A stretch of 64,000 nucleotides of DNA from Squalus acanthias (taxonomy: Eukaryota). Each line of letters starts with the position of its first letter. The first letter of the stretch is position 1. A model generated the notes under the pieces. The model searched no databases. It saw only the letters and a list, made by a program, of their open reading frames with translations, and was not told where the DNA came from. The translations under genes were made by a program, and so were the position numbers. This document shows, one piece after another, positions 10,213 through 64,000 of this stretch. The stretch covers positions 186,001 to 250,000 of the forward strand of contig JASTWF010000070.1 in the NCBI GenBank assembly GCA_030390025.1, written 5' to 3'.

Positions 10213-10541
10213 GCAGCGAGGATCGAAGCCCCTCGGTTCTTCTCCTCCCTCCCTCCTCGGAAGAAATCGGCTCGGGATCGGCCACTCTGTCCTGCTTGGT
10301 CAGTCGCTTTAAGCCGGGCTTGGTGCGGCTCCGCTGGTGCGTGGATGGCCAAGAGACAGACAGCGGGGTGACGACAGGCGCCGTGTCCCCGGACAGCGAT
10401 CAAACCTACAGCCTGAGCAGTTACCTGAGAGTCCCCGCCTCCGCCTGGAACAAGGGCTCCAGCTATTCCTGCAGCGTCAGCCACGGCTCCCTGAGCTCGC
10501 CTCTTCTCAAGACCATCAGCGCCTCCTCGTGTTCCGACTGA
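10213..10541 (+). pseudogene. Orphan Ig light-chain sigma-cart (type I) C exon, cluster 2; ORF intact but promoter, leader and VJ deleted
   Basis: cacacag|GCAGCGAG acceptor; SEDRSPSVLLLPPSSEEIGSGSATLSCLVSRFKPG...YSCSVSHGSLSSPLLKTISASSCSD*; C1-set with C-terminal interchain Cys; AATAAA 10854-10859; no V upstream (junction at about 8685). Confidence 0.88.
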
Positions 10542-23767: not shown

Positions 23768-26700
23768 ATGGCTCCAGCGATGCATCTCCTGTGGGCTCTG
23801 CTGATCCATTTAACAGGTGAGAGACGGATGGTTTTAATCACGGGTTTATCCGCATCTAAATCGGTTCAATACCGAGATTCGGGCCGTTTTCTCTCCGTTT
23901 TTTTGAAGCATTAACGTCCTATTTGCTCCAAGTTACTAAATGGGTTGCTTTTTTCTTTTATTGAAGATGTCCTGGCGGCTCCCGTCCTCAATCAGTCCCC
24001 AATATCCGATCCTGTCTCCGCGGCCCAGACCGCCCGGTTACAGTGTGCGATGGTGAACGGGGCTGTGGGCAGCTATTACGTAGACTGGTACCGACAGCGA
24101 CCCGGGGAAGCTCCGGTGTGGGTGCTCTATCACAGTACCAGTGGCACTATCATCCGAGGTACCGGCTTCACATACCGTTTTCAACCTTCCAGAGACGCCT
24201 CCGCTAACAGTTACATTCTGACCATCGGAAACCTGGTGCCCGGTGACTCCGCCGTCTATTACTGTTCTGTGTGGGACTCGGAATACAGCTTCGGACCGGG
24301 GACCGCCCTGAGTATAAAGAGTAAGTGACTCTCTCATTCTATCGTTTACATTGTTTCAATTATTATTAATTTACAGTCGCTTTCATTCCCGGGCGCCAGA
24401 GAAATCTCCATTCAGTGAATTTTGATGTTGGATCTATTTATACCCACAAAAATGTTAAACTGGTCAGAATTGGAATTGTTGAAGTGCCATGGGGAACAAC
24501 AATGCGCTGAAATTAAGTCTGACACCATTTCCTGCTCCCATTCAATAGGGGAGATGAGGAGAAGTGTTCTTTTTACGCAGCCAGTTGTTGTGATGTGGAA
24601 TGCGCTGCCTGAAAGGGCGGTGGAAGCAGATTCAATAGTAACTTTCAAAAGTGAATTGGAGAAATACTGTGAAGTCATGAATTAATGTAAACAGTGTTCT
24701 TTTTACGCAGAGAGTTGTTAAAAAGTGATTCCCTCCTAAATGGCCGGGCTCTAATTTTAAGGTGATGTCCCCTGGTTCTTGGTTTCCTCACCGGAGGAAA
24801 TCGTTTTTGTGTAGCTACCCGAGCGAATCCTTCTTCACATTTTTAACACTTCGAACAGATCGCCCCTGAATCTTCTAATCTCAAGGGAATACAAGCCAAG
24901 TTTATGCAATCCGTCCTCGTAATTTAACCCTCTAAGCCCCGGTATCATTCGGATGCAGCAAGAGACAGAGAGAGAGAGAGAGAGATAGGAAAGTTGTGAG
25001 CTACACTGTGAAGTTCTGACAGTGGACACTGAATATGTCACTATGTTACACTGAGACTTGAAGGGGAGAAAATTGCAGGGCTCTGGGGAAAGAGCAGGGG
25101 AGTGGGACTGATTGGAGAGCTCTTTCAAAGAGCCGGCACAGGCAAGATGGGCCTAATGGCCTCCTTCTGTGCTGTTTGATTCTACGCTATTCCTTACTTA
25201 TTCCCTTAGTGTATGTGGAAATATTTATATTGTCCAGAGTCGGCACCGCCTGATTTTAGAAAGATTGCCCGGAGCCGGTGGGAGAGCCCCCGGGGGAATC
25301 CCCACATTTACCGTAATTTGCAACTTTCAATGTTGCTGCTGGTTTTATTCCTGTGGCGTATTGTCCCCCTGACCGCAGCCGTCGGGTGTCCGGCTCTGGG
25401 CTGGGAGAGAGAGAGGACCCTCCCGAGACCCGCTGTCCCAGCACACAACCGGTTGGATCGACTCCCTGTCGCCAGCAACACCGGGACTAGTCGGGATTGT
25501 ATTCGTTTGACGAGTCCGGTTTTATTCTGAATTTCGTGATCCGTTATTTAATCTGTCTGAGTTCATTATTTGCAATCTCCGCGCTGTTTATGGAGCTGAA
25601 CCGCCGCTTTACCATGGAGCGGCGCAGTGACAATTACTGACCAGCCCCGTGTGTGTGATTGAGACTGGGTGATGCTTGTTGAAGGGAACTTTCTCTCCAT
25701 CTCATTCTCTCGCTGCTGTCCCTCTCCCTCCACTAGGCTGTGGCTGCTGACTCTCCCTGTCCAGTGTCGATTCTCCTGGATTGATGTGTCGGGTCCCACT
25801 ACCGCCCAGTGTTGAACGGATCGCTCCGGGACCAGCGAGACTGAGCTGATCCCGAGAGAGAAATCAGTTCACCCGCGCGGGGAGGAATCCTTACTTGCCT
25901 CTGTAGCGAGAATCTTTTACAATCCGTGCTCCCCATTTTACTAGAAATATCAAACCGTGAAAACCCTTCATCAAACCGGGGTGACCTAATAGACGTCTTT
26001 AAAATGATGAAATATTTTGATAGAGTAGACACAGAGACCATTTACACTTCATCTGGATTCATGTTATGTTTCTTAACTTGTCCCATTACCATCTCCTTCT
26101 GCCTTGCACCATCATCCCTTTTGTCTCTTAATCTCTCCTGCCTTCCAACCTGTCACAGACCTTCCCTTTTGTACTTTCCTCCCCTCCCCCCCTTCCCTGT
26201 CCGGACACTTGCTTAAAAACTTGTTCCATCTCCAACTTTTTCCAGTTCTGACGATGGATCATCGACCTGAAAAGTTAACTCTGTTTCTCTCTCCACAGAC
26301 GCTGCCTCACCAGCTGAGTATTTCCAGCATTTTCCGTGTTTTTTCAGATTTCCAGCATCCGCAGTATTTTGCTTTTCTATTAGTGTTCCCACTTGTTGGG
26401 AAGAGCAAAACTAGAGGCCATCAATATAAGGCAGTCACCAAGAAATCAAATAGGGAATTCAGGAGAAACTTCTTTGCCCAGAGAGTGGTGAGAATGTGGA
26501 ACTCGTTACCACAGGGAGTGGTTGAGGCGAATAGTATAGATGCATTTAAGGGGAGGCTAGATAAACACATGAGGGAGAAGGGAATAGAGGGTTATGCTGA
26601 TAGAGTCAAATATGGGAGGAGGCTCGAGTGGAGCATAAACGCCGGCATGGACTGGTTGGTCCGAATGAACTCTTTCTGTGCTGTATATTCTGTGTAATTC

Positions 26701-27984
26701 TGTGTAAACCATTTACAATATTGTTGGGCAGAGTCCCTACATTAATTCCCAGCCCGTGTACAATGTCCTCTCTTTATTCAGTGAGCTCTTCAATACCCGG
26801 TAACAGACCCGGCTCAATTATCATCGCCGCAACATTTAACGCCGATCAGTTTCTAACACGCAATTCTAAAAATATATGAATTGTAAAAAAAACTTCCGGA
26901 CTCTTATAGAATGATACAGCACAGAAGGAGGCCATTCGGCCCATCGTGTCTGTGGCGGCTCTTTGAATGGGCTGAATCAGTTTGAGATATCAGAACCTAT
27001 GTGGACTCTCGGTGAGAAGCCGGTCAAAGCTCCGTGAATTCACCACTTTAAAGTTAACACTGACCGCATTTTAAGGCAATCAAACGCTTTATTATATTCA
27101 AGTAAAAAGGAAAAAACTGCAATTATAGAAAATTTTATAAAAACAGAAAATGCTGGAAATACACGGTCAGTATCTGTAACGGGAACAGACAGTTCCGGGG
27201 GTGTAACCTACACCTGAACTGGCCAGTTACTGATCTTCGCGGCTCACAGATGTTGACTGACCCGGTCTGTATTTCCAGCATTTTCTATTATTATTTAACA
27301 AAGAGAGAGAAAGAAGAAAACGAAGAAGGGACGAAAGAAAGAATGAAAGAGAGAAAGAAAAAAAAAGGAAAGAAGGAAAGAAACAAAGAAAGAGAGAATT
27401 TGCTTTAAAAAATCTCCTTTCACGACCTCAGGATGTCCTAAAGCGCTTTACAGCCAATGATGAACTCTTGAACCAAGTGACTTTTGTAATGTGGGCAAAA
27501 AAATTGGAAAAGTAGCGGATCTCCTGTATTAATCAGTAATTTATTTTAAAGTGAATGTTGTTCGGGGGTTCTTTGGCGTCTTTGATTTCAGATCAGAGCG
27601 TCCCACTGCTGACGGATTCCATAAACTAATGAATTTTCTCTCCCCCCACACACAGGCAGCGAGGATCGAAGCCCCTCGGTTCTTCTCCTCCCTCCCTCCT
27701 CGGAAGAAATCGGCTCGGGCTCGGCCACTCTGTCTTGCCTGGTCACTCGCTTTAAGCCGGGCTTGGTGCGGCTCCGCTGGAGCGTGGATGGCAAAGAGAC
27801 AGACAGCGGGGTGACGACTGGCGCCGTGTACCCGGACAGCGATCAAACCTACAGCCTGAGCAGTTACCTGAGAGTCCCCGCCGCCGCCTGGAACAAGGGC
27901 TCCAGCTATTCCTGCAACGTCAGGCACGGCGCCCTGAGCTCGCCTCTTCTCAAGACCATCAGCGCCTCCTCGTGTTCCGACTGA
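23768..27984 (+). CDS. Intact germline-joined Ig light chain, sigma-cart/type I (NS5-like), cluster 3; exons 23768-23816 (L), 23967-24320 (VJ), 27656-27984 (C)
   Basis: MAPAMHLLWALLIHLT|DVLAAPVLNQSPISDPVSA...C...WYRQRPGEAP...YYCSVWDSEYSFGPGTALSIK|SSEDRSPSVLLLPPS...SSCSD*; GT/AG phase-1 introns; AATAAA 28289-28294; resembles shark type I light chains as recalled. Confidence 0.92.
23967..24320 (+). CDS. Germline-joined VJ exon of the sigma-cart light chain
   Basis: V-set Cys/Trp/YYC and J motif FGPGT in one exon, no RSS, AAGA|gtaagt donor. Confidence 0.93.
26040..26380 (+). mobile_element. Penelope-like fragment nested in a CR1 3' fragment in the J-C intron
   Basis: Interrupts ...gacacagaga|...|gtgttcccacttg of the CR1 tail; carries a degenerate CTGACGA...GAAA motif at about 26248-26275. 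Confidence 0.55.
27656..27984 (+). CDS. Sigma-cart light-chain C1 exon (cluster 3)
   Basis: Same 329-nt length and near identity to 10213-10541; intact ORF. Confidence 0.93.
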
Positions 27985-33570: not shown

Positions 33571-36500
33571 ATGAGCTTCTTAACTCCCTGCGCGCTGTTC
33601 CATCTCTTTCCAGGTCAGTCTTATGTGCTTCTAATACATGGCGGAGTTCAAGCGTAAGATCATTGAGCTAGTCAGACAAGTAGAAGAGAGCGCGCTGTAT
33701 TCTGTAATATTAGTGTCATGTTGATGGACTGGATTATCTCAGGCGAATGAAATTAGACCAAATGTCAATATTTTCCATCTATTGGATGTCCCGTCTGCCC
33801 TCTCAGGTGGAGGGAAAGATCCCACGGCCACTATTGGAAGGAGAGCAGGGGAGTTCTCCCCGGTATCCTGGGGCCAATATTATATCCCTCAATCAACATC
33901 ACAGATTACCTGGTCATTATCATATTGCTGTTTGTGGGAGCTTGCTGTGCGCAATTTGGCTGCCGCGTTTCTTACATTCCAGCAGTGACTACACTGCAAA
34001 AGGTAATTCATTGGCTGTAAAGATCTTTCTTCCTTTCTTTCTTTCTTTCTTTCTTCCTTTCATTCTTTCTCCTGTTATAGACTCAATTTTAACCCCCATC
34101 AGTTGACTCATTTAGATATTGGTATCCATGCTCATTAATGATCGGATGGTCCTATTCACAGTTTACTGCTGTACCCGTTTCTTTATAGGAAGCGGTGTTT
34201 TTTTCTGCCGTGTAACAGACCCTCTTGTGAATATGTTGTTCTCTCAGTTATTGTCTCTCAGGAAGTTTTCCGCCAGAATCCGCCGTTTCTGACTGTCTCC
34301 GTTGGAAGTATCTTTAAGGTGGATTGTCACACGGGTTGGTTAGCAGTAGAAGCTGTGCACTGGTACAAGCGGCAGCACCGAGAGCATCTACAGCTAGTTT
34401 ACACCGTGGGAAAGTACATGCCTCCTGAAGGAAGATTTTCCGGAGAAGTTAACAACGAATCCAGTATTTACTCTCTGATTGTGAAAGATGTCCAGAGGAA
34501 TGATTCGGGGGTGTATTACTGCGCAGCTAAGAAGTATAGCCTAATGCCCTTGATATTCGGAAACGGCTCGAAATTGCTCATTGCAGGTAAGAATTGCGAT
34601 TGTTTTACTCATTTCATCATAAATAACGACCAATTTACGTCGAATATTAATGGTATCTTAACCCCCCAAACTCGCCAGGGTCTCCGGAAATCTTTCTCTT
34701 AGCTCCACCGCCGGATGAAATTCCCTCGCTGGAAAGGGTCCCATTGATGTGTTTGGTGAAAAGCATGTCTCCCGATTCCCTTCCCGTTCGCTGGAATGTT
34801 TCTGGACAGGTTACCGAGGAACCGAGCGATTCCGGGACAATAGACCCGGACGGGACCTACACTGTAAGGAGTCACATCAGCGTCTCGGCGGAAACTTGGA
34901 GCAGCGGCGCTGTCTGTACTTGCGCCGTTCCAATCAACTCCACTGGGGATCTGATTAGTGAAAGTGTCTCATCTCAGAGATGTAACTATTGGCAGTGACA
35001 CTTTCCTAATATCTTCCGTGCTGATGTAAGAGTTAATTGTTCGCAATATCACTTTATACATTCAAAGTCTCTCCCTTTCTGCGTGTCCATGTAGAATTAC
35101 CCAATCATTTACCCCTCTCAATGTTGCAGTGTTGAGCTTTCTGAATTATAAAGTCCATCTGTCTAGCTAGGCCATACTTATATGGTGGGAGAGAAGGAAT
35201 CTATCTGAGCTGTCCATGCGTAAAATTGGAAAATATAATTGCCATTTCCAGTTTATCACTTTCTCTCTCGATGCCTGTATGTAGGTATCTGTATTACACA
35301 GTATGTACAGGTCATTCGGCCCAACAGGTCCGTGCCGGTGTTCATGCTCCACACGAGTCCCCTCCCATCCCACTTCATTATAAACCCATCAATATCCATC
35401 TATTCATTTCTCCCTCATGTGTTTATCCAGCTTCCCCTTAAATGCATCTGTGCTATTCGCCTCAACCACTCTCTGTGGTAGCGAGTTCCACATTCTCACC
35501 GCTCTCTGGGTAAAGAAGTTTCTCCTGAATTCCCAATTGGTTTTAATAGTAACTATCTTTTATTTGTGGCGCCTAGTTCTGATCCCAAGCGCCCCCCCGC
35601 CGCCACAAATGGAACGATCTTCTCTACGTCGACCCTATCAAAGGTTTTGACAGAGTAGATAGAGAGAGAATGTTTCCACTTGTGGGGTAGAGCACAACTA
35701 GAGGCCATCAATATAAGATAGTCACCAAGTAATTCAATAGGGAAGTCAGGACAAAACTTTTTACCCGGAGAGTGGTGAGAATGTGGAACTCGCTACCACA
35801 GGGAGTGGTTGAAGCGAATAGTATAGATGCATTTGAAGGGGGAGGCTGGACAAGCATGTGAGGGAGTCGGGAATAGAGGGATAAGCTGTTTGATTTAGAT
35901 GAGGAAAGACGGGAGGAGGCTCGAGTGGAGCATAAACGCCTGGAATGGATTGGTTGGGCCGAATGGCCTGTTTCTGTGCCGTATATCCCATGTAATCCTA
36001 TGCAAACCCTTTCATAATCTAAAGTCCTCTATCAGGTCACCTCTCAGTCTTCACTTTTGTCGAGAAAGGAACCCAGCCTGTTCAATCTTTCCTGATAGGC
36101 ATAACGTCTCAATTCTGGTATCATCCTAGTAAATCTTTTTGTATCTTCTCCAGTGTCTCTATATCCTCTTTATAATATGGAACCCAGAAATGTTCTCAGT
36201 ATTCCAAGTGTGGTCCAACCAAGGTTCTACAGAAATCTAACATAACTTCTCTGCTTTTCAATTCTATCCCTCTAGAAATGAACCCCAGTTCTTGGTTTGC
36301 TTTTATGGCCTTATTAACCTGCGTCGCTACTTTTAGTGATTTGTGTATCTGTACCTCCAGATCCCACTGCTCCTCTGCTCCATTTAGACACTTATTTTCC
36401 AAGGAGTATGTGACCTTCTTATTCTTCCGACCCAAACGGTTTCTATCTAACGTTTCATCTAAGAGAGGAGAAAGGTGTCACTTGGGCTACCATATACCAG

Positions 36501-38532
36501 ATGAGTTGCGGACAAACACTTAGAATCCGTATTTTGAACTGACTGTGGTGAGCATTTATAAATGTCTGGGCTAGTTAAGGACAACCAGCAGCGATTTGTG
36601 AAAGTGGAGTCGTGTTTAACAAAATTAAAAGAGCTTTTGCGGAAGGGACCGATTGGATAGTTAAAGGGATTGCAGTAGATGTAACGTGTATGGAATTCCA
36701 GAAGGCGTTTGATAAAGTGTCGCACAAGAGGGCTTTTGGGAAACAATTTAGAGGTTTGGTGTGAAGGAGATGTGGCAGCCTGGATGGAAAGTTAGATGAC
36801 ATTCAAGACATAAGGAGATAGGGTTAATGGGTATTCCTCGGATTGGCGAAGGATTGGAAGTGGTGCATCCCATGGGACAGAGTGGGCTTTGGGATTAGTT
36901 TTGGATTGATACAGGAATATGGAGAGAGAGCCGGGTAATGGGATTAGTTTTGGATCCATCTAGCAAAGAGCCGGCACAAACATGGAGGGCCTTTTAGTCT
37001 CCTTCTGTGCCCTACCCTTCGATAGGTTCACGGTTATATAGTTCTGTCTGTCTATTTGTCTNNNNNNNNNNNNNNNNNNNNNNNNNNNNNNNNNNNNNNN
37101 NNNNNNNNNNNNNNNNNNNNNNNNNNNNNNNNNNNNNNNNNNNNNNNNNNNNNNNNNNNNNNNNNNNNNNNNNNNNNNNNNNNNNNNNNNNNNNNNNNNN
37201 NNNNNNNNNNNNNNNNNNNNNNNNNNNNNNNNNNNNNNNNNNNNNNNNNNNNNNNNNNNNNNNNNNNNNNNNNNNNNNNNNNNNNNNNNNNNNNNNNNNN
37301 NNNNNNNNNNNNNNNNNNNNNNNNNNNNNNNNNNNNNNNNNNNNNNNNNNNNNNNNNNNNNNNNNNNNNNNNNNNNCTAATGATTTTCAGCAACATTTTT
37401 AATTTGTTCTCGTGATGTGGGTGACGCGGGCAAATCTAGCATTGATTGTCCATCCCTCGTGGTTGAGAAGGTGGTGGTGGGTCTCCTTGAACCTTCTGCG
37501 AGAACCAGAAGGCTCGGGTAACGGGATTGTTTTAAATAAAAGGTTGTTTTTTTCTTTCTTCAGAGCCCCCGCTACAAACCAGCTGCACTTTACTGCTTTA
37601 CGGGAGGTCGTCGGCGGCGCTTCTCCTTCTGCTGATGGTTGTTGTCGCCGCGGGAAGGAGCTGCAGGAACCGGCGGTCAGGTAGCGGTTGTCGGGAGGCG
37701 CTCCAACTCCACGGCGCTCCCAATCAATCCATTTATTGTGTCGTTTGCTCATTACATGTTAGTGGACCGGTTCAGTGTGAAATGTGTGCATTTTTGCTCC
37801 ACACATGGAGCTTCCTTTCTTTGTTTTTTAATCCAACGTTTAAGATTCATACTTGATTCTGTGAAACTTTGCATAGTGAACATTACTGGATAGACTGATT
37901 GTTTGTAAAACTGCGAAAGTAGATTAAAAGCGTAGATCTGGATATTTTAAGTTTGTAATTATAAATAATAACAGAATGATGATTCACCAGGATGATACCG
38001 GGGCTAAAAGGGTTAAATTATGAGGACAGGTTGTACAGACTCGAGCTTGTATTCCCTTGTGTATTGAACATTCAGGGGTGATCTAATTGAGGTGTTTAAG
38101 ATGATTGAAGGATTTCATCGGGTAGGTAGAGAGAAAGTATTTCCTCTGGTGGGGGATTCAAGAACAAGGGGGCATGACCTTAAAGTTAGAGCCAGGCCGT
38201 TCAGGGGTGATGTCAGGAAGCACTTCTGCACACAAAGAGTAGTGGAAATCTGGAACTCTCTCGCCAAGAAGATGTTGAGGCTGGGGGTGTCAATTGGAAA
38301 TTTCAAAACTGATATTGATAGATCCTTGTTGGGTAAGGGTATTAAGGGTTAGGCAACCAAGGCGTGTAGATGGAGTTAAGATACAGATCAGCCATGATCT
38401 GACTGAATGTCGGAACAGGCTCGAGGGGCTGAACAGCCTCCTCCTGTCCCTCTGTTCCTATGATGATGATGTGGGCTATGATAATGGTTTCTGTTTTCTC
38501 TCATAGACTCTTTACGCCCACCTGGCGTTTAA
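33571..38532 (+). CDS. R1: non-rearranging VJ-C1-TM IgSF receptor, activating type (TM Arg); exons 33571-33613, 34248-34586, 34679-34981, 37564-37680, 38507-38532; may be defective or secreted
   Basis: Leader MSFLTPCALFHLFP; V ...VDC...HWYKR...YYCAAKKYSLMPLIFGNGSKLLIA; 92-nt intron; C1 ...LMCLV...WNVSG...GTYTVRSHI...VCTC; TM exon PPLQTSCTLLLYGRSSAALLLLLMVVVAAGRSCRNRRS; tail DSLRPPGV*; AATAAA 39128-39133. A direct C-to-TM splice would create TAG, and a gap lies in this intron. Confidence 0.75.
34248..34586 (+). CDS. R1 VJ exon (V-set with in-exon J motif FGNGSKL)
   Basis: ctctcag acceptor, GCAG|gtaag donor, canonical Cys, Trp and DSGVYYC. Confidence 0.9.
34679..34981 (+). CDS. R1 C1-set exon
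   Basis: GSPEIFLLAPPPDEIPSLERVPLMCLVKSMSPDSLPVRWNV...DGTYTVRSHISVSAETWSSGAVCTCAV. Confidence 0.88.
37062..37376. other. Assembly gap (315 N)
   Basis: Run of N in the R1 C-TM intron. Confidence 1.
37564..37680 (+). CDS. R1 transmembrane exon with Arg
   Basis: Strong polypyrimidine/cag acceptor, 117 nt, phase 1-1, ends TCA G|gt like the R2 TM exon. Confidence 0.78.
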
Positions 38533-39519
38533 TGCGGTTCCGACCCTCTGACGGGAAAGGAAAGCGAGCGCCTGCCGGATATGACGTGTTGTGGAAAGTT
38601 CCCTCTGCTTTGCTCTCACTGTGGGATCAGTAAGACACGCTCAGTAACAATTCAAGCCACCTGTTCCTCAATTGTGTGCCGCTTCCGCGTGCTTTTGGGA
38701 TCCATTGACAGGAAATTGGCAAGCTCATTCAGAAGAAGAACCAGCGCAGTAGAGCCCTGAGGTGTAAACCCTTCCGAGAGACTTTGATACGCCGGGTTCA
38801 AGTCCCAAAGCACCACAGAAATCCGACTATTGGAAGCAGTGGCGTGCCGACTGGAGAGTCTTAACACCGAACATATCCGGCGCAATTTCAAGCGCATTTT
38901 GCAAATGGGATATTTCGCCCCAAGCGGAAATTCGAAACATATTTAAATTCTCTCTTACGCATCGTCTGCTATTCTTAAGATCACACATCGCCTGCAGTTT
39001 CGGTTCAATCTCGACATGTTTCTCCTCTCTTGCATTGGCGTTTTTAGATTAATTGTGAATCTTTGTATGTGAGCACGATATAATTCAAATAATCTTTACA
39101 ATGCATCAGTGTCCGAGTTACAAATACAATAAAACAGGTTTTGAAACCCCAGCATTGTGTTTTTGATTCCAGCCCTTTGATCGTTCAGTCCAGATGCGCT
39201 CAGTGTATCTCTGACGCCGATTTACAAGGCACATTTACAGAACAAATGTGTGCGGTTCAAAAGTGGGGCTCAGGACCGACTGGGCAGCTCAGGCACTGCC
39301 TCCGGATTTAGGCTGCATTGATATTAAAGCTGGATTGTAAGTGGACCCCGAGCGTTCTCTACTTCTGTCCTGGGAGTGAACTCTGTCACATTTACTATCG
39401 AAAGTAGATTATTTTAAATCCATCTGCTCTTTTTAATAATGCAGTTAAGTGATTTCGTCAGCAAATTTATGGTGGCTTTTACCCACTATTAGTTTCTATT
39501 AGTTCTTAGAAAATACGTT

Positions 39520-40250
39520 TTCAAATGGGGTAGAGGATCTGGGGTGCAGATACACAAATCACTAAAAGTAGCGACACAGGTTAACAAGGTCATTAAAACA
39601 AGCAAAACAAGCACTGGGGTTAATTTCTCGAGGGATAGAATTGAAAAGCAGCGAAGTTGTGTTGAACTTGTATCGAACCTTGGTTAGACTACACTTGGAA
39701 CACTGTGCACACTTTTGGTCTCCATATTATCAAAAAGGACATTGAGGCACTGGAGACGGTGCAAAAAAAGATTTACAAGGATGATACAGAACTGAGAGGT
39801 TATAACTATCAGGAAAGATTGAGCAGGCTGGAACACATTTCTCTCGAAAAGAGAAGACTGAGGGGTGACCTGATAGAGGTCTTTAAGATTATGAAAGGGT
39901 TTGATAGGAAGAGGAGATGTTTTGACTTGTGAGGAGACCAGAAGTAGGGGCCATAAATAGAAGATAGTCACTAATAAATCCGATAAGGAATTCAGGAGAA
40001 AATTCTTTACCCAGAGAGTGGTGAGAATGAGGAACTCGCTACCACAGGGAGTGGTTGAGGCGAATAGCATAGAAGCATTCAAGGGGAAGCTTGATAAACA
40101 CACGAGGAAGAAAGGATTAGAAGGATATTGTGATGGGGTGAGATGAAGAGGGGTGGGAGGAGGCTCGTGTGGAGGAGAAACCCCGGCACGGACCAATTGT
40201 TCCGAATGGCCTGTTTCTGTGCTGTGAACACTTTGTAACTTTGTAAAGCA
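39520..40250 (+). mobile_element. CR1 LINE 3' fragment
   Basis: LEKRRLRGDLIEVFKIMKG motif and CR1 3'UTR. Confidence 0.8.
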
Positions 40251-41723
40251 GAACCCTTCGGCTGTGACTGAAAGCGGTTTGCTGGTGATGTTAATAATTC
40301 GCAGCGGTAACACAATTCGCTCTTCACATTCGGAAATCGGGCAAATATAAGAGTAAAATTCAAAGGCTGTTTCGCCGAGATGCTGTGATATATTTCGGGT
40401 ACACCTTCGATTTCATATATATTTAAAAGCTGGGTATGAGGTCTTTGGTGTGGTGATTAATGGATAATTGAGCTGGTTATTAGGCTCTGATCTCATCGAG
40501 AAGCTCTTGTAATTCATGTACCGAGGGGATATAAACATGCCGAAATTAACAATATTTTGCTGTCAAAATATTCTGCACAGATATTGCAAAGAGTATTTGG
40601 AGACACTTGTCACAAGGTCGCTGCAGGTGAAAAAGGCCATTCTACCAAACGTAGCTCAGGACTCCAGAAAGGTTCTGACCTTCTCGCCCATCAGGGCAGC
40701 CAAACTGTTACCTAAATGACTCCAGGGGTTTTCATTCACACCAGAGGACCATTCCATGTGCTGATCACTCCTTGTGTGTTGAACTTCCAGTAATCAGTCT
40801 TCAATTTGCTTTTTAGTATTCCGAACTAATTATCCTACTAGCGACAGGAACATTGGAACGGGAGGAGGCCATTCAGCCTCTGGAGCCTGTTCCACCATTC
40901 AATTTGATCATAACTGACCTGCAGGTTAACTCCATCTACCCGTCTTGGTTCCGTATCTCTTAATACCCTAACCCAACAAAAATCTATCACTCTCAGTGCT
41001 GAAAATTTCAATTGACACCCAGCCTCTACATCTTTTATGGAGAGAGCGTTCCAGATTTCCACTACCCTTTGTGTGAAGCAGTGCTTCCTGACATCACCTC
41101 TGAACGGACTTGGTCTAATTTTAAGGTTATGCCCCCTTGTTCTGGAATCCCGCCCCCCAAACAGAGGGAATAGTTTCTCTCTATCTACCCAATCAACTGC
41201 TTTATCATTTTTATCACCTCAGTTGGATCACCCCTTAAACTTCTAAACTCAAGAGAATACAAGGCTAGTCTATGGAACCTGTCCTTAGAATTTAAACCTG
41301 TTTTATCCTGATCACATTTATTATAAGTGAAATATTGGTCGATAGGAACCGCTCGTGCATCGTTACATTCGAAGAATAATTTATTTTATTTACACACAAG
41401 CATTTGCAAATAAAAATCCTGTTACTAACGGGAACTACAGGATGAGCAGGAAAGGTTCAGATAAACACCAAATCGAGAAGTCCCTGCTCTTAATGTTTGT
41501 CTCACGCTTGAATTACACTAATGCAGTGGAATATCTTTACAATACTCAAAGCACGTTCGTTACATTGAACAGAAAGAGTCTTTGCAACCTCCGGCGAGTG
41601 CAGGGAGATAGTTTAGATGTTTGACGGGATTCTCCGTGACTCCATTCTTATTCCCGAAGGCTGTGGGTTCTTTTGTAAGTCCGGTCTCCTCCCGCATCCA
41701 TCGGATAGAAACCCTCCGGGTTC

Positions 41724-44700
41724 TCATCCGCGACCCGCCTTCTTTTTTGATGACTTTTCCGAGGCAGTAAATTCCAGAGAGGCGTAAAGATGCTGGTCTC
41801 GAGGGCCGCCCTGAGACAGGAAACATTGACATTTCAAGATATTTAAAGGCAGGTCAAACTATCTCGTCCTGCAGTCGCGTTTTATGGAATCATAGAATTA
41901 TGCAGCACAGAAGCAGGCCATTCGGTCCATCGTGCCTGTGCTGGGTCTTTGAAAGATCATAAGAACATAAGAACATAGGAATTAGGAGCAGGAGTCGGCC
42001 ATACGGCCCCTCGAGCGTGCTCCGCCATTCAATAAGATCATGGCTGATCATCGACCTCAACTCCTCTTTCCCACCCGATCTCCATATCCCTTGATTCCCC
42101 TAGAGTCCAAAAATCTATCTATCTTAGTCTTGAATATATTCAAAGACTGAGCATCCACACCCCTCTGGGGCAGAGAATTCCAAAGATTCACAACCCTCTG
42201 AGTGAAGAATTTCCTCCTAATCTTAGTCTTAAATGGCCGACCCCTTTTCCTGAGACTATAGCCCCTAGTTCTAGACACTCCTGCTGGGGGAAATAACCTC
42301 TCAGCATCTACCCTGTCAATCCCCCTCAGAAACTTGTAGATTTCAATGAGATCACCTCTCATTCTTCTAAACTCTAGAGAGCATCGGCCCAATAAATTCA
42401 ATCTCTCATCATAGGACAGCCCTCTCACCCCAGGAATTAATCTAGTGAACGTTCGTTGCACCGCCCTTAAGGCAAGTATATCCTTCCTTAGATAAGGAGA
42501 CCAAAACAGAGCACAGTACTCCAGGTGTGGTCTCTCCAAGCCCCTGGACAATTGTTGCAAGGCTTCCTTACTCTTATACTCCAACCCCCTTGCAATAAAG
42601 GCAACATGCCCTTTGTCTTCCTTATTGCATGCTGTACCTGCATGCTTGCTTTCTGTGTTTCTTGCACGAGGACACCCAAATCTCTCTCAAGACAAACATT
42701 TAAAAGTTTCTCACCATTTAAAAAATATTCTGTTTTTCTATTCTTCGTACCAAAGTGAATAACCTCACATTTCCCTACATTATACTGCATCTGCCACTTT
42801 ACTGCCCACTCTATCCAATTAGTCCCGCTCTTCCTGCTTTTCCCCACAGACCTGCACATAATTATCCTTCGAATACTTATCCAATTCGCTTGTGAAATTT
42901 AGCATTGAATCTGCTTCCACCACCCTCTTTCTAAATTTGAGAATCTTTTGCTTAATATGTCCACACAAGTACTGTCTGAATAATGTTTTAACAAACAGAG
43001 GAGCACAACTCGTAAAGCAGCTTAACCCAGAAATCACCAACATTTTATCAGAAAACTTGGATGATGAGTCTATTTGTTTGACTGGATGGTCACATCAAAA
43101 CAATCCAATCAGACGGCCATGTTTCGCCATCTCCAAGGTTACGTAGATCACAATCACTCAAACACAATCAATCATATCCAACCAGAATCACACACACACG
43201 CCATCACACATCATAACAGAAAGAAAGACTAGCCTTTCTACAGCATCTTTCATGATCTCAGAACGTTCCAAAACGCTTTACAGCCAATTAAATGCTTTTG
43301 AAGTGTAGCCACTGTTGAAATGTAGGAAACGCGGCAGCCAATTTGCGCACAGCAAGCTTCCACAAACATCCATGTGATAATGACCAGAACATCTGTTTTT
43401 TCGTGATGTTGATTGAGGGATAAATATTGGCCGAGGACACTAGCGAGAACTCTGCTGCTCTTCTTCGAGTGAGTTATTTTACGTCCACCTGAGAGGGCAG
43501 ACGGGGCCTCAATTTATCATCTCATCTGAAAGACGGCAGCTGCGACGGTGCAGCACTCCCTCAGTATTGCCCCTCCGAAATGCAGCGCTCCCTCAGTACG
43601 GCCCCTCCGACAGTGCAGCACTCCCTCAGTACTGCCCCTCTGACAGTGCAGCGCTCAATCAGTACTGCCTCTCTGACAGTGCAGCACTCCCGCATTACTG
43701 CCCCTCCGACAGTGCGGCGCTCCCTCAGTATTGCCCCTCCGGCAGTGCAGCGCTCCCTCAGTACTGCCACTCCAACTGTGCAGCGCTCCCTCAGTACTGC
43801 CCCTCCGACAGTGCGGCGCTCCCTCAGTACTGCCCCTCCGACAGTGCGGCGCTCCCTCAGTACTGCCCCTCCGACATTGCGGCGCTTCCTCAGTACTGAC
43901 CCTCTGACAGTATAGCGCTCCCTCAGTGCCGCACTGGGAGCGTCAGCCTTGAATTTTTTTGCGCAATTCTCTGGAGTGGGACTTGAACCCATGACCTACT
44001 GACCCAGAGGCAAGAGTGCTACACACGGAGTCATGGCTGACAATCACACACACGCACGCTCACTTACACACTCACAAAACCTCATACATACACACACACA
44101 CTCACTCTCTCAGGCACTCACTCGCAGACACACACACACAATCTCATACGCACACACACACTCACACACACACATTCTATCCAAACAGTTTCCTTCTTCG
44201 ACGACTTACCATAGAAACATATTTTGACTTATCTGTGAAATTATTCTGGCTGTCGTATTATTCCTGAATCTTCATAATAATATATTAAAAACAGTATCTC
44301 GGCCGGATTGGGGGTGGTGGGTGGGAGCGGGGGTTGGTGGGGGGAGCGGACATGGATTCAATGTAGAGATAAAAATAATATAAAATAGCAAAAATCTGTA
44401 AATCTGAAATAGAACCAGAAACTGCTGGAAATCCGCAGTTGAATCTGGTGAAGGCATTCTACCCGGAACATTAACCTATCCTTTCTATTATCAGATGGGA
44501 AGAGGGCTGCGGGATATGTTCTGTTTCCAGTTGGAGCAACGAATGGGATTCGCTGCAAATTAAGATGATCTGGACTATGACCTGCTCAATGCCAACCGCA
44601 TGAAATATCCAGCATGTGGCGCATTGCACCCATCCCAGAAATCACCAAGTTCCTGTATATTATTGCAACAGGTTCAATGAACTTACTTACATGTATTGCA

Positions 44701-47700
44701 CCCTGATGTGTCCGCTTCGCCTCCATTTGACGGGTGTCACCTGTGTATTAACAGTTACGAATATGTATTTAAATATTATCAATTCTGTCTAATCTATAAT
44801 TAATTATAGAGGCACCATGCGCAAATGGTCCACTAATATGACAATGGTCCATTAATACGCCAATGGTACCCCAATATGCCAGTGGTCCAACAATATGCAA
44901 TGGCACCTCAATATGCCAATTGTCCCCCATACGCCAATGGTACCCCAATACGCCAACTCTCTCCCACTATGCCAATGGTCCACCAATAATATCTCAATAA
45001 TATCTCAATAAGCCAACGAACCCCTAATACGCCAAGAGTAGCCCAATGCGCCAATGGTCCCCCACTATGCAAATGGTACCCCAATACGCCAATGGATAGA
45101 CACGGGCTATCCATCCCCGGTGTCTGGCGGCTATTGTCCATCTGATACGCAATTGTCAGCATTAATAACCAATAATTAGCCTTTCTGTAGAACCAGTAGA
45201 ACGGAGCACGATGGCAGGACATTTTATTGCCTGGAAATGAACTTATTGATCTTTGAAATATCCTGCGATTGATGTTTTATCTGCACCAACATTTCAATCC
45301 AACTCACCCGGGTGTCGCTCATTTCTTCCGGCTCTTATCGTTCTCTCTCTCAAATTAAAACTGTATGCGAAGAAAAATATTAAACAAGCATTACTTCTTT
45401 TACATCGTTTGTCACATGCCATAAATATCGAGAACAGAATTGTGGAATGGACTTTGAATCAATCTTAAAGGACGTGGAAAATATTGAAATTGGAGTTGGG
45501 GTTGACTGGTTTTGACACATGTGTTAAATACAGTGAGACTGTTACTGATGAACATTGTAAATGGTTCAGTTACTCACCTTTCCTTGTGGGGTCTCTTGAC
45601 TCGTTCTTCTGAAACAATTAACTGTAATTAGTATTTAAAGCTTCTAGAAGGGAATCACATTAAACAAACATTTATTAAAATATTCCGTATAAACGTAAAT
45701 TCTCACCTGATCTGTTGCTTTTATGATTCCAAATGAAAATGAGGATCAATACCAGAACCAGGATCACCGAGACAGTTATTGCAACGGGAAGGGTCAGAAT
45801 GCACCACCCTACAGAGAGAAACACTTAGAAAATGCATCTGGGTCAAATCATTACTTTCTGGGATACTCTGATGAGAAACGTGAACCAGTTACAATGTAGG
45901 AGCATCAAACCCGGGGTGTGAAAGGACAAACCAGCCAATGCGACTAATATTGGACAAGTGAAAGCTCATAATGGAATAAATTGCACTAGTTTGGTGGTTT
46001 AGGCAAATTGACAGACGGCACCCTCAGTACTGCCGCATAATTTTACTAATGCACAATCAAAACATCCTATTTGAAAACTGAATCATAGAATGATTACAGC
46101 ACAGAAGGAGGCCATTCAACCCATCGGGTCTGTGCGGGCTCTTTTGTGGAGCTAAGCAATTAGTCCCACTCCACTTCTCTTTCCCCATAGCCCTGTTCAT
46201 GTTATCCCTTCAAGTATTTATCTAATTGTCTGTTGAAAATTGCTATTGAACCCGCTTCCACCGCCCTTTCAGGCAGCACATTCCAAATCACAACAACTCG
46301 CTGTGTAAAAAAATCAGCTCATCTCGCCTCTGGTACTTCTGCCAATCAAATTAAATCGGTGTCCTCTGGTTACCGACCCTTCTGCCAATGGGAAAAGTTT
46401 TTTCTTATTTATTCTGTCAGAACCCTTCATGATTCATGATTGAATCTCCTCTTAACCTTCGCTGCTCTATGGAGAACAATCCCAGCTTCTCCAGTCTCTC
46501 CACATAACTGAAGTCCCTCATCCTTGGTACCATTCTAGGAAATCTCCACTCTACCGTCTCCAATGAATTGACATCCTTCCTAAAGTGTAGTGCCAAGAAT
46601 TAGACACAATACTCCAGCTGTGGCCCAACCATTGCTTTATAAATGTTTAGCATAACTTCCTTGCTTCTGTACTCTGTTCCTCTATTAATAAAACCAAGCA
46701 CCCCATATGTATTTTTAACAGTCTTCTCGACTTCTCCTGCCACCTTCAAAGATTTGTGCTCATACACCCCCCATGTTTTATTGTGATAAACTGAAACGAT
46801 TACACAATTTCAGTGAAGCTTCATAACCTGATTATATGAAATTATATTTCACGGGGAGAGTGGGGATTGATAAGGGGGGTTCGGGTCTTTAAAACAGCAA
46901 ACGAGAAAATAAACGGGTGGAAATGAGCGAGCGTCTGATGCCAGCAGACGCGTTCAGCCAACTATTTCACCGCATCTCTTGACTAGTTTCAGGTCAGAAA
47001 GCGCGTTCACTCCAATCCATTCCAGGATGCGCTGCCTGAAAGGGCGATGGAAGCTGATTCACTAATAACTTTCAAAAGGGAATCGGATAAATAATTGAAG
47101 GGGAGAATTTTGCAAGGGCTGTGGGGAAAGAGCTGGGGCGGAGTGGGATTAATTGGATAGCTCTTTCAAAGAGCCGGCTCAGACACGATGGGCCGAATGG
47201 CCTCCTTCTGTGCTGCATCATTCTATGATTCCAAAATGACCCGCAGAAATTTAAAGTCAGCCAAGAGCGGAGGAAGTAGCTACAAGACCTGGGACGGAGG
47301 GCAACCTTAGCTTATTTCAATGTATTTTATAACGCACTATTCTCCTGATATATAGATATTCATGCTTATCCCGTGGTGTTGCTTTATTTACAGACTTCAG
47401 GCGATTAGGAGCGAGTGAACTACTCCAACTGACGCTAAAGCTCAATACTGCCATTCGCCATACAGATCACCGACTTACCTGCCACTGTTTTGGGCGCGAC
47501 ACGCTCTTGGCCCAAGATTTGTCCTTGGAACCCAGCTCAACAATACAGGCGCAGACCCCGCCGCTTCTCCAGGCTTCCCCCGAGACCATCACATGGCTTC
47601 TGATGCTGTAGGTCCCGTCCGGGCCCAGTGTACCGGAATCGCTGCGTCCCTCGGTCACCTCTCCGGTAACGTTCCAGTAAAGAGCAATCTGGTTCAAGGA

Positions 47701-48910
47701 GACGCCAGTGACCAAACACACCAAGGGGACGGTGTCCCTTAAATGCGGCTCCCCCGGCAGAGCAAACACCAGCACAGCCGTCTTGGGTGTGGAACTGTCT
47801 GGACAGGGATTGGGACACAGTTAACTCTTACTTTACACCGAATGATATTGCTGTGCATGATCTGAATTCAATTTGGTTTTGCTCTTACCTCCAACCAGCA
47901 GTGTGGATCCATTCCCGAGCGGTGCATAGCTACCGCTAGCAGCACAGTAATAGGAGCCGGTGTCAGCCACCTGTACATTGCGGATTTCCAGGATCAGTAT
48001 ATATTTGGTGTGTCCTTTTTTAGAAGTAAACTTGCAATCGGTCCGATTACAGGATGGGATATCGATTAGTCTCGGGGCTTCACCCACATGCTGCTTGTAC
48101 CAGAAATAGCTATTCACCAAATTCACTTCATAAATCTCGTGACATTCCAATTTGACCGACTGGCCGACTCCGGCTGTCACTGTGAAGGGGCTCCGAGACT
48201 GGATGGGCTGCGATTCTGCAACTAGAAGGATTATTGTGACATTAGAAGTGATTATTGAGCGATAGAAAGAAGCCGCGTTGAAACACCTCGCCTGTAATTT
48301 AAGAACAGCATCATTATTGCCTTCAGTTATTGCTGGTTATATCCATTCTCTAGTTTGCCTTTACTTCGCCTTATAGAAGGACTAGAAAGTAAACCAACAT
48401 GATCAACAACAACTTTCTTTGATACAGCGACTTTAACGTAATTAAGCGACCCAAGGCGCTTTACACAAATTTGACACCTACCACAGAAGGAGATATTAGG
48501 ACAGGTGACCAAAAGCTTGGTCAAAGAGCTAAGTGCTAAGGAGCGTCTTAAAGGAGGGGAGAGAGGCGGAGAGGGTTAAGGAGGGAATTTCAGAGCTGAG
48601 GGCCCAGGCAGCTGAAGGCACGGCCACCATTGATGGAGCGATGGAAATCGGGGGATGCGCAAGAGGGCAGAATTGGAGCAGCGCAGAGATCTCGGAGGGT
48701 TGCAGGGCTGGAGGAGGTTACAGAGATAGGGAGGGGGAGAAAATATCAGCCCAAAAGTTGTTAGTTCGGTCACATTTTCAACTTAGTAAACACAGTCCAT
48801 TGTTTCCAGTTTTTGGCTGATTCCATTTAGGAGTTTGGAACCGTGTCTCACTCACCGTAAGGCCAGAACACGTGGACAATGAGGATCAGGGAAAAAGTTG
48901 CCTTGAACAT
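41724..48910 (-). CDS. R2: non-rearranging VJ-C1-TM IgSF receptor, inhibitory type (YASL tail); exons 48856-48910, 47889-48221, 47479-47798, 45707-45808, 45578-45608, 45308-45360, 44691-44740, 41724-41810
   Basis: Leader MFKATFSLILIVHVFWPY; V ...KLEC...FWYKQ...YYCAASGSYAPLGNGSTLLVG; 90-nt intron; C1; neutral TM WCILTLPVAITVSVILVLVLILIFIW; tail exons phase-compatible (1-2, 2-1, 1-0, 0) ending GGPRDQHLYASLEFTASEKSSKKKAGRG*; the C1 donor is 1 nt out of phase with the TM exon. Confidence 0.8.
41957..42820 (-). mobile_element. CR1 LINE 3' fragment in the last R2 intron
   Basis: RPHLEYC...RRMRGDLIE...FFTQRVVNLWNSLP on the minus strand. Confidence 0.88.
43540..43930. repeat. 33-bp minisatellite (about 12 units) inside a SINE
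   Basis: Same unit as 32432-32761. Confidence 0.9.
44820..45095. repeat. Imperfect tandem repeat of about 20 bp (CCAATGGTACCCCAATAYG-like)
   Basis: Repeated ccaatgg/ccaata units in an R2 intron. Confidence 0.7.
45707..45808 (-). CDS. R2 transmembrane exon (uncharged)
   Basis: tctctctgtag acceptor, 102 nt, long hydrophobic stretch, TCAG|gtgag donor. Confidence 0.85.
47479..47798 (-). CDS. R2 C1-set exon
   Basis: DSSTPKTAVLVFALPGEP...LVCLV...YWNVTG...DGTYSIRSHV...GVCAC; clearly homologous to the R1 C1. Confidence 0.88.
47889..48221 (-). CDS. R2 VJ exon
   Basis: V-set Cys/Trp/DTGSYYC, J-like LGNGSTL, extra Cys pair SCNRTDC; canonical AG/GT. Confidence 0.9.
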
Positions 48911-49131
48911 CTTGAGGCCGGAGCCGCGCTCAGTTATTCCCGTGCTCGCTCTCAACATTCTGCATTCGGAGTGGGCGCCGAGTGACCCGAGCGCACACAC
49001 AGTTGATTACACCCCCTTCAGATACGGTGGAAACTATTCCGCGCTAAGCCTTTGCGTGTGTATCTTGTTGGATGCCACGCCTCATGCATTTTACATGTGG
49101 GCAGTGCCTGAACGTCACAGCGGTCAGTCTA

Positions 49132-49139
49132 ATGCAAAT
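49132..49139 (-). promoter_or_regulatory. Octamer ATTTGCAT upstream of R2
   Basis: Plus-strand ATGCAAAT about 220 nt upstream of the R2 ATG, with CRE-like GTGACGTTCA at 49109-49118. Confidence 0.45.
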
Positions 49140-49879
49140 TGCAGGATGGCCATAAAGAGCTTTCGATTATATTTCGGAGAGGGTGCCAGAAAGGTTATGG
49201 TTTGGATGCGTGCACTTGTCATTGTTCTGAATTTTAATTTTGGCAGTTAAAGTTGAGAATTGTATTTAATTCATTCACGGGATGTAGGCGTCGCTGGCAA
49301 GGCCAGCATTTATTGTCCATCCCTAGTTGCCATTGAGAAGGTGGTGGGGAGCCGCCTTGTTGAACCGCTGCAGTCCCGTGAGGTGAAAGTGCTCCCACAG
49401 TGCTGTTAGGGAGGGAATTCGAGGATTTTGACCCAGCGACAATGAAGGAACGGCCGGTATTTGTCCAAATCAGGATGGTGTGTGTGACTTGGAGCGGGGA
49501 ACTTGAAGGTGATGGTGTTACCATGCGCCTCCTCTCCTTGTCTTTCTAGGTGTTGGAGGTCGCGGGCTTGGGAGGTGCTGTCGGAGAAGCCTTGCCGAGT
49601 TGCTGCAGTGCATCTTGTAGATGGTACACACTGCAGCCACGGTGCGCCGGTGGTGGAGGGAATGGATATTTAATGAATTATATTGAGGCTCAGAATAGTA
49701 TCAATTACTTCTGTGCTAACACTGGGCAATGCAGATAAACAGGACGCGGTGTCACATGGAAGGGGAGGCTGTAAATGTGGTCAATGTACTCGAGTCGGCT
49801 CTCTGTTAAGTTGAATCTACCCTGGGTGACAACTGTCTTTTGTGTGCGGTTGAACATGTTGCCTGACTGTTTGAAATTT

Positions 49880-60923: not shown

Positions 60924-61478
60924 ATGGCTCCAGCGTTGCATCTTCTGTGGGCTCTGCTGATCCATTTAACAGGTGAAAGACGGATGGTTTTAGTCACGGG
61001 TTTATCCGCAACTAAATCGGTTCAATACCGAGAATCGAGCGGTTTTCTCTCCGTGTTTATTGACGTATTAACATCCTATTAGCTCCAAGTCTCTGAATGA
61101 GTTGATTTTTTTCTTTTATTGAAGGTGTCCTGGCGGCTCCCGTCCTCAATCAGTCCCCAATATCCGATCCTGTCTCCGCGGGTCTGACCGCCCGGTTACA
61201 GTGTGCGATGGAGAACGGGGCTGTGGGCAGCAAACGCGTGGAATAGTTCCGACAGCGACCCGGGGAAGCTCCGGTGTATTTGATATATCACAAGCATGAT
61301 GGCACCATCTACCGAGGTACCGGCTTCACAGACCGTTTTCAACCTTCCAGCGACGCCTCCGGTAACAGTTACATTCTGACCATCGGAACCCTGGTGCCCG
61401 GTGACTCCGCCGTCTATTACTGTGCTGTCTGGGACACGGAATACAGCTTCGGACCGGGGACCGTCTTGAGTATAAAGA
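60924..61478 (+). pseudogene. Germline-joined sigma-cart L (60924-60972) and VJ (61125-61478) with in-frame stop; C exon expected just beyond the window
   Basis: Conserved FR2 Trp TGG changed to TAG at 61244-61246; otherwise colinear with 23967-24320 (CAVWDTEYSFGPGT). Confidence 0.9.
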
Positions 61479-64000
61479 GTAAGTGACTCTCTCATTCTAT
61501 CATTTACATTGTTTCAATTATTATTAATTTACAGTCGCTTTCATTCCCGGGCGCCAGAGAAATCTCGATTCAGTGAATTTTGATGTTGGATCTATTTATA
61601 CCCAAAAAATGTTAAACTTGTCAGAATTGGAATTGTTGAAGCGCCTCGTGGAATAATACTGCGCTGAAATGAAGTTTGACACCATTTCCTGCTCCCATTC
61701 AATAGGGGAGATGAGGAGAAGTGTTCTTTTTACGCAGCGAGTTGTTGTGATCTGGAACGCGCTGCCTGAAAGGGCGGTGGAAGCAGATTGAATAGTGACT
61801 TTCAAAAGTGAATTGGATAAATACTTGAAAAGGATAAATGCAGAGCTTTAGGGAAAGAGCAGGGCAGTGGGAATAATTGGATAGCTCTATTCAAAGAGCC
61901 GGCACTGGCACGATGGGCTGAATGTCCTCATCGGAGAACTGATTGATAAAATAGTGACAGAGGAACAGGAGGAGGCCATTCAGCCACTCGAGCCTGTGTG
62001 AAAAAGTGCTTCCCTCCTCAATGGCCGGGCTCTAATTTTAAGTTGATGTCCCCTGGTTCATGATTCCCCGACCGGAGTAAATCGTTTCTCTGTGTTGACC
62101 CGATCGAATCCTTTTTCACATTTTAAACACCTCGATCTGTATCACCTCTGAATCTTCTAACCTCAAGGGAATACAGGCCAAGTTTATGCAACCCGTCCTC
62201 GTAATTTAACCCTCTAAGCGGCGGTAGCATTCGGGTGCGGCAAGAGAGAGAGACAGAAACAGAGAGAGAGGAAAGTTCGGAGCTACACTGTGTAGTTCTG
62301 ACATTGGGCACTGAATATGTCACTATGTTACACTGAGACTTGAACAGGAGAAAATTGCAGGGCTCTGCGGAAAGAGCAGGGGAGTGGGACTGATTGGAGA
62401 GCTCTTTCAAAGTGCCGGCACTGGCACAATGGGCCGAATGGCCTCCTTCTGTGCTGTATGATTCTATGCTGTTCCTTACTTCTTCTCGATGTGTATGTGG
62501 AATTATTCCTATTGTCCAGAGTCTGCACCGCCCGATTTTAAATAGATTGCTCGGAGCCGGCGAGAGAGTTAGCGGGGAATGCCAACCCATTTACCGTCAT
62601 TTACAACTTTCAATGTTGCTGCTGGTTTTATTCCTGTGGCGTATTGTGCCCCTGACTGCAGCCGTCGGTTGTCCGGCTCTGGGCTGGGAGAGAGAGAGGA
62701 CCCTCCCGAGACCCGCTGTCCCAGCACACAACCGGTTGGATCGACTCCCTGTCGCCAGCAACACCGGGACTAGTCGGGATTGTATTCATTTGCCGGGACT
62801 GGTTTTATCCCGAATTTCCTGCTGCGATATTTAATCTGTCTCAGGTCATTATTTGCAATCTCCCCGCTGTTTATAGAGCAGAACCGCCGCTTTACCTTGG
62901 AGCGGCACAATGACAATTACTGACCAGCCCCGTGTGTGTGAGTGAGACTGGGTGATGCTTGTTGAAGGGAGCTTTCTCTCCACCTCATTCTCTCGCTGCT
63001 GACCCTCTCCCTCCCCCAGGCTGTGTCTGCTGACTCTCCCTGTCCAGTGTCCCCCCGGGGATAGCGCCGAGGTCTTTAAAATTATGAAACGTTTTGATAG
63101 AGTAGACACAGAGAGAATGTTTCCACTGGTGGGGAAGGTCAAAACTATGAGCCATCAATATAAGAGAACACCAATAAATCAAATAGGGATTTTGTTACCC
63201 AGAGAGTGGTGAGAATGTGGTACTCACTACAACACGGATTGATTGAGGAAAATAGTATAGATTTAAGGGGAAGCTAAATAAGCACATGAGGGAGAAGGGA
63301 ATAGAGGGTTATGCTGATAGAGTTAGGTGTGGACGGATGGGAGGAGGCTGGAGTGGAGCATAAACGCCGGCATGGATTGGTTGGGACGATTGTCTGTTTG
63401 TGTGCTGCATATTCTGTGTAATTCTATGTAAAGCATTTACAATATTGGTAGGCAGAGTCACTACATTAATTCCCAGCCCGTGTACAATGTCCTCTCTTTA
63501 TTCAGTGAGCTCTTCAATACCCGGTAAAAGACACGGCTCAATTATCATCCCCGCAACATTTAAAGCCGATCAGTTTCTAACTCGCAATTCCACATGAATA
63601 TGATTCGCAAACAAAACTTCCGGGCAGTTATGGAATGATACAGCACAGAAGGAGGCCATTCGGCCCATCGTGCCTGTGGCGGCTCTTTGAAAGGGCTGCA
63701 TCAGTTTGAGATATCAGAACATAATGTGGACTCTCGGTGAAAAGCGATTCACTGCTCCGTGATTTCACCACTTTAATGTTAACACTGAACGGATTTTTAG
63801 ACAATCAAACGCTTTATTATATTCAAGTAAAAAGCCAAAAAAACTGCAATTACAGGAAATTAAATAAAAACAGAAAATGCTGGGAATACACGGCCGGTCG
63901 GTCAGTGTCTGTAACGGGAACAGACAGGTTAGTGCGGTTCCGGGGGTGTAACCTGCACCTGAACTGGTCAGTTACTGATCTTTCCGCCTCACTCATGCTG

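Follow-up and report, generated by a model that had tools for sequence, protein, structure and literature searches.

The locus analysed here, a 64,000-nucleotide stretch of Squalus acanthias DNA (positions 186,001 to 250,000 of contig JASTWF010000070.1; hereafter, the window), raises the question of whether the gene R1 encodes an activating receptor derived from an inhibitory ancestor by a switch in the reading frame of its last exon, as the first-pass annotation had proposed. The reading that we prefer, at a probability of roughly 0.55, is that R1 acquired an activating-type module through the gain of a transmembrane (TM) Arg and the deletion of an exon, and that this module is now silenced by a newer stop codon at the junction of the C1 and TM exons. 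The copy is probably a relic.

R1 lies on the forward strand of the window and forms a convergent pair with R2 on the reverse strand, with immunoglobulin light-chain genes on both sides; convergent R1 and R2 genes recur along the contig. Counting R1, 17 copies of this non-rearranging, PRARP-like receptor, with its VJ-C1-TM layout, were modelled. The leader exon (33571–33613, 43 nt, phase 1) is open and conserved across the 16 paralogs. The germline-joined VJ exon (34248–34586, 339 nt) is likewise open, carries an FGNG J motif and matches the Pfam V-set with an E-value of 3.6e-12, and the C1 exon (34679–34981, 303 nt, phase 1-1) matches the C1-set (E 1.9e-10). The TM exon (37564–37680, 117 nt, phase 1-1) has an open frame and intact AG/GT splice sites, as annotated, and the last coding exon occupies 38507–38551, with an AATAAA signal past the 3' UTR at 39128–39133. 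The flanking light-chain genes comprise germline-joined VJ and C exons at 23915–24328, 27625–27984, 10185–10541 and approximately 61196–61490, the first two of which have Pfam V-set and C1-set matches. Directly before the TM segment of both R1 and R2 is a Cys that is near-invariant among R1 homologs and could form a putative interchain disulfide.

For comparison, 16 other R1 copies in the genome were modelled (L011–L026) and two more broken ones were mapped. In a sister subfamily the TM was mapped in five copies, with two more matches having no TM exon in the stretch examined, and the R2 set comprises 17 other modelled copies and one near-identical duplicate. Matches to the V exon amount to about 19 close copies and a distant subfamily at about 50–54% identity, and those to R2 number 27; two matches on C19 are ordinary V segments outside the family. 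In the R1 copies L055 and L056, the V exon is split by an insertion and the tail Tyr is replaced by Phe. The nearest database proteins are from sharks and rays and bear loose automatic names. More distant turtle proteins have the same layout (E 1e-39 to 4e-30), and none of the matches is named PRARP.

The last coding exon of R1 can be read in two frames, both of which had been annotated correctly. Entered in phase 1 it gives DSLRPPGV before a stop (38530–38532), and entered in phase 0, the ancestral frame, it gives TLYAHLAFNAVPTL before a stop and encodes a Tyr motif. A Tyr motif closes 30 of the 32 homologs that have a TM, so chance does not explain the phase-0 frame. The paralogs reach it through a 59-nt spacer exon, some 143 nt past the TM exon, that converts phase 1 to phase 0. 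This exon is kept in 16/16 modelled paralogs and in two further broken copies, and a matching spacer peptide is seen in homologs from other species. In all 15 paralogs having the last exon, the spacer leads into the TxYxxL-frame tail; in L025 the spacer acceptor is damaged and the last exon is absent. The proposal of an inhibitory-type ancestor is correct. An ITIM or ITSM is found in the translated tail of 9 of the 17 R1 copies and of the same 30 homologs, and is absent from that of the R1 in the window.

Alignment to L016, L021 and L026 reveals a 111-bp deletion in R1, with its junction at 37790–37791 and a breakpoint that slides within a run of T, which removes the spacer exon. A near-identical duplicate at the start of the contig carries the same deletion and the same Arg. 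A scan of 37701–38480 for AG..GT exons bridging phase 1 to phase 0, under thresholds lenient enough to retain a paralog's genuine spacer exon, returned no candidates. The suggestion that exon loss silenced the Tyr motif is correct as to the lost frame, but the loss concerns one 59-nt exon and not counterparts of the three tail exons of R2. Provided that the TM exon splices to 38507, the frame switch of R1 is real at the DNA level, and the resulting short tail would be free of tyrosine with its stop inside the last exon.

The annotated TM Arg is encoded by AGG at 37605–37607 and is private to R1: Ser, Thr or Cys occupies the column in the 16 paralogs, and Arg is found there in 0/16 paralogs and in 0/32 homologous TMs. 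Orthologs lacking the Arg had been named in advance as evidence against an activating receptor, yet an Arg derived in this copy predicts the same pattern. The residue is at position 6 inside the best 19-residue hydrophobic window. The NxxR motif is absent, residue –3 being Leu both in R1 and in L028, a family copy outside the window. Two zeta/FcR-gamma-type TM exons are present in the genome, which speaks for the presence of the adaptor type alone. Two R2-type proteins from other sharks (P0044 and P0047) have an NxxR TM and are missing the usual tail motif.

Two lesions that the first-pass annotation had not described bear on whether these features are expressed. The first is a private T at 34981, the last base of the C1 exon, where 16/16 paralogs have G. 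Since this T and the AG that opens the TM exon make TAG, the R1 frame from the leader is not open through the TM; canonical splicing ends it at residue 228, and as assembled R1 is not the activating receptor that had been proposed. The T also costs the donor its –1 G, where the +5 G was missing already, a change that usually weakens such a site. Read-through of the donor is predicted to end at 233 residues and skipping of the TM exon at 236. Two bypasses are predicted to stay in frame: a possible cryptic phase-1 donor after 34963 (34961–34969), which most paralogs have too, would if used yield a membrane form of 269 residues, and a transcript without the C1 exon would encode one of 174. The donor scores are crude consensus-match counts that do not separate real from cryptic sites (6–9 for real donors, 6 for the mutated donor). 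The junction stop is known from one assembled copy, the contig-start duplicate being without the C1 exon. Because it is private and lies within the young half of the gene, it is likely to be recent and to postdate both the Arg and the deletion.

The second lesion is in R2, whose leader (48856–48910), VJ (47889–48221; Pfam V-set E 1.3e-10) and C1 (47479–47798) exons lie on the reverse strand. The C1 exon measures 320 nt, against 321 or 315 nt in 17/17 other copies, and one C is missing near its end at 47492–47494 in both assembled copies and in 0/17 others. This shifts the frame of the uncharged TM exon (45707–45808) and ends the ORF after residue 240, ahead of the TM, so that both genes of the cassette end just after C1. 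A 13-nt micro-exon that would rescue the frame was rejected, as it would leave an intron of 46 nt and the 17 paralogs need none. Three small tail exons at 45578–45608 (31 nt), 45308–45360 (53 nt) and 44691–44740 (50 nt) lead in phase 0 to the last coding exon (41724–41810), which encodes the LYASL motif, and in this respect the annotated route of R2 stands. An AATAAA at 47382–47387, on the same strand and 92 nt past the C1 donor, is common to 14 of the 17 other R2 copies and may yield a family-wide secreted isoform. Three R2 copies of the 17 have a TM Lys: L040, in which the tail is broken; L042, which keeps the motif; and L045, which has lost both the motif Tyr and the canonical V cysteine. 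In a further R2 copy, L038, the three tail exons are lost and the TM is without charge.

The two halves of R1 have different histories. Between the leader intron and position 36600 or so, the gene is about 1–3% divergent from the nearest of L011–L015, and the TM exon is 6% from the nearest copy and the sequence just past the deletion 20%, with the exception of a short stretch directly after the TM exon (1.8%). In the tree for the 5' part, R1 falls inside the L011–L015 clade (100/100) on an end branch of 0.008. The end branch is 0.068 in the 3' tree, where placement in that clade is rejected (p-AU 0.012), and the 3' placement is in turn rejected on the 5' data (p-AU 0.002). R2 repeats the pattern less strongly: its V region clusters with the R2 partners of L011 and L012 (0.96), and its 3' part does not. 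V exons move among other copies too, as in L034, which in the V tree falls outside the clade that it joins in the 3' tree. By these trees and AU tests, R1 is an old-lineage 3' half joined to an ectodomain recently homogenised with that of inhibitory-type sisters, with a distinct signalling half; the exchange could have run in either direction. The duplicate at the contig start (G000:C3553:55-12500) is 99.45% identical to window positions 37377–49823, is indel-noisy over its first 4 kb and has 22 substitutions over the remainder; either the other haplotype or a recent duplication may explain it.

The preferred reading, in which an activating-type module arose and was then silenced, would order these events as follows. 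Ancestral splicing from the TM exon through the spacer to the last exon would have produced a TxYxxL tail that recruits SHP-type phosphatases. Deletion of the 59-nt spacer would then have joined the TM exon to the last exon, leaving a 17-residue tail without tyrosine whose stop codon, being in the last exon, would spare the mRNA from decay. The partner of the TM Arg would be an FcR-gamma or CD3-zeta dimer, and sequence exchange would have kept the ectodomain matched to the inhibitory sisters L011–L015. The G>T change at 34981 would have come last, leaving the copy to yield either a transcript that decays or a V-C1 chain in soluble form.

The alternative that survives best, which is credible although we regard it as less likely, is plain birth-and-death decay, in which an inhibitory copy was crippled by the deletion, the Arg arose by chance, and decay continued with the junction stop and the frameshift in R2. 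Lesions are indeed common in the R1 cluster, with 8/17 copies broken. The TM exon of R1 differs from the majority state at seven sites, none of them synonymous, at a rate close to that of its flanks, and no purifying signal was found in it. The chance that any Arg or Lys arises in the TM core over such histories is 19–25%; the dead sister copies L029 and L051 gained a second, mid-TM Arg, both genes of the cassette are truncated after C1, and L038 shows that tail exons can be lost without a TM charge. Against decay, 4/5 TM-mapped copies of the sister subfamily have both an Arg in the column of the R1 Arg, there encoded by CGT, and a stop in the spacer exon. Three of these are broken upstream, but in L028 the same switch looks intact. 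The chance of a basic residue in the same TM column is lower (p about 0.04–0.06), and the sister subfamily gained its Arg and tail stop independently of R1. Also against decay are the homogenised ectodomains of R1 and R2 beside their old signalling halves, and one spliced contig that matches only the window copy.

A full paired-receptor system with repeated activating members (R1, L028 and the three R2 copies with Lys), in which the change at 34981 reroutes R1 to an NKp30-like Arg receptor with one V domain or to the cryptic-donor Arg receptor, seems to us rather improbable. A related and distinctly doubtful proposal is that the receptor continues to be produced: the T at 34981 could be an artefact of assembly, a null allele carried by one animal, or a base that splicing bypasses. 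The two in-frame bypasses would permit this, and the spliced contig, of low depth, joins 34586 to 34679 (GT..AG) with no differences over 176 nt, in which each of the 16 paralogs differs at at least three sites. The run from which it comes is taken to be RNA by guess, none of the runs being recorded as such; the match suggests that the R1 copy, or an allele, is transcribed and spliced. The contig, however, includes C1, which argues against forms that all skip that exon, and its end at 34826 falls before the C1–TM junction. A form without C1 was noticed in none of 37 homologs, the cryptic donor would remove six residues from the end of C1, and both assembled copies of the partner R2 carry the frameshift. 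Two runs guessed to be RNA leave the TM and last coding exons uncovered, with no RNA joint that involves the TM exon, and this weighs on neither side. Two DNA runs give G at 34981 and a Ser codon at 37607 and leave 37868–37928 uncovered; their contigs merge some 17 copies and lose rare variants, so that they speak neither for nor against the lesions. There is precedent for polymorphic nulls among activating partners, as passages of PMC5701461 describe for SIGLEC16P.

It is very unlikely that the cassette now serves as a soluble V-C1 pair, or decoy, for which both chains would end past an intact V and C1. R1 would stop at one of its three predicted residues (228, 233 or 236) by whichever splicing route, R2 has its early AATAAA, and isoforms without a TM occur among annotated homologs (four clear cases in 37, and 4/14). 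That signal is shared so widely by other R2 copies that it is no innovation, however, and R1 has none within 1.6 kb of its donor. Lesions near the end of C1 are found in L018 and L020 as well. The 50-nt rule, moreover, marks such spliced transcripts as targets of decay. The first-pass suggestion of an unseen exon in 37681–38506 that restores phase 0, and with it a dual receptor with Arg and TxYxxL, can be dismissed, since the deletion took away the phase-shifting exon of every paralog, no bridging candidate exists in the scanned interval and the upstream stop applies in any case.

PRARP is characterized by a single joined VJ exon, a V domain followed by a C1-set domain and a TM, a two-gene pair and a tail with ITIM or ITSM. 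R1 and R2 share the germline-joined VJ exon, the C1 exon, the TM, the two-gene pair and, as a family, the Tyr-motif tail. Unlike PRARP, the shark family consists of about 20 tandem cassettes beside immunoglobulin light-chain genes, and the window copy of R1 is truncated, with a translated tail free of ITIM and ITSM. To our knowledge, a basic TM residue without a Tyr motif is not part of the PRARP description; some shark members have this combination. By these features the shark family is PRARP-like in layout. Non-rearranging PRARP or VJC1 pairs were reportedly described by Fu et al. 2019 (J Immunol 202:1992) and Ohta et al. 2019. Work on PRARP and VJC1 is mentioned in passages of PMC10751288 and PMC11599192. 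A literature search whose reach did not extend to the original PRARP papers found no description of activating members of the shark family, and none of the records listed concerns the R1 gene; the passages of PMC12227049 concern UrIg2 and do not mention the R1/R2 pair.

The proposed route has precedents. Passages of Abi-Rached and Parham 2005 (PMC2213150) describe Mm-KIR3DH of the rhesus macaque, which lack exon 8 and lose their ITIMs through a frameshift, and describe activating receptors as short-lived. As in KIR3DH and the recurrent activating KIR and Ly49, R1 would be an activating form of an inhibitory homologue in which loss of a tail exon shifts the frame, with a signalling module recombined onto another ectodomain and a short life. 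It differs in its VJ-C1 ectodomain (Ig-C2 in KIR), in the physical deletion of its exon and in an Arg gained by point change. Merohomogenization of paired receptors, in which the ligand-binding parts are homogenised, is set out in PMC3210942, and the 5'/3' pattern of R1 matches it. SIGLEC16 and SIGLEC16P with SIGLEC11, as far as the passages of PMC5701461 go, similarly combine a homogenised ectodomain, a distinct signalling half and a null lesion upstream of the TM; R1 belongs to another protein family, with another TM residue context and a stop seen in one assembled copy. Excerpts of PMC2413239 and PMC1440944 list FcR-gamma-coupled receptors with an N-terminal TM Arg (LILRA2, NKp46, GPVI, Fc-alpha-RI and Xenopus XFL TM1), the former giving NxxR as the TM context of FcR-gamma partners. 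In these terms R1 is alike in the outer position of its Arg and, if the TM exon is spliced to 38507, in its short tyrosine-free tail, and unlike in having no NxxR and in an Arg at position 6, against position 3 in Fc-alpha-RI. Judged by its sequence, R1 resembles a paired activating receptor yet lacks the open frame and the NxxR; the L028 frame is open.

NKp30 (NCR3) has a single VJ domain set directly on a TM that contains an Arg, with no C1. R1, unlike NKp30, has a C1 exon that is spliced to V, and only the hypothetical C1 skip would give the NKp30 layout. The best 60 PDB matches of R1 are Ig and TCR V domains, none of them named NKp30. The route proposed for R1, a TM Arg and loss of a tail exon, an ectodomain kept matched by exchange and an early death, is one already known from KIR and Ly49. 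Its occurrence in a shark family built like an antigen-receptor chain that does not rearrange suggests that such pairs carry accelerators as well as brakes, and that the accelerators turn over fast there too.

A better object for direct test than R1 is offered by L027 and L028, with the same V and C1 and opposite signalling halves. L028 (L028:278-7634; G000:C3553:130000-139000) lies about 50 kb before the window and combines the TM Arg with a spacer-exon stop; its ORF is open over 278 residues and stops 24 nt ahead of the last junction. L027 (G000:C24:48879400-48888400, minus strand) has an uncharged TM, with Ser, and a full ILYARL tail. The two may be live paired receptors or, alternatively, alleles with signals of opposite sign. 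Their identity over 9 kb is 99.65%, with no difference in V or C1, and 18 of their 29 substitutions fall in the 500-bp bin that holds the TM and spacer.
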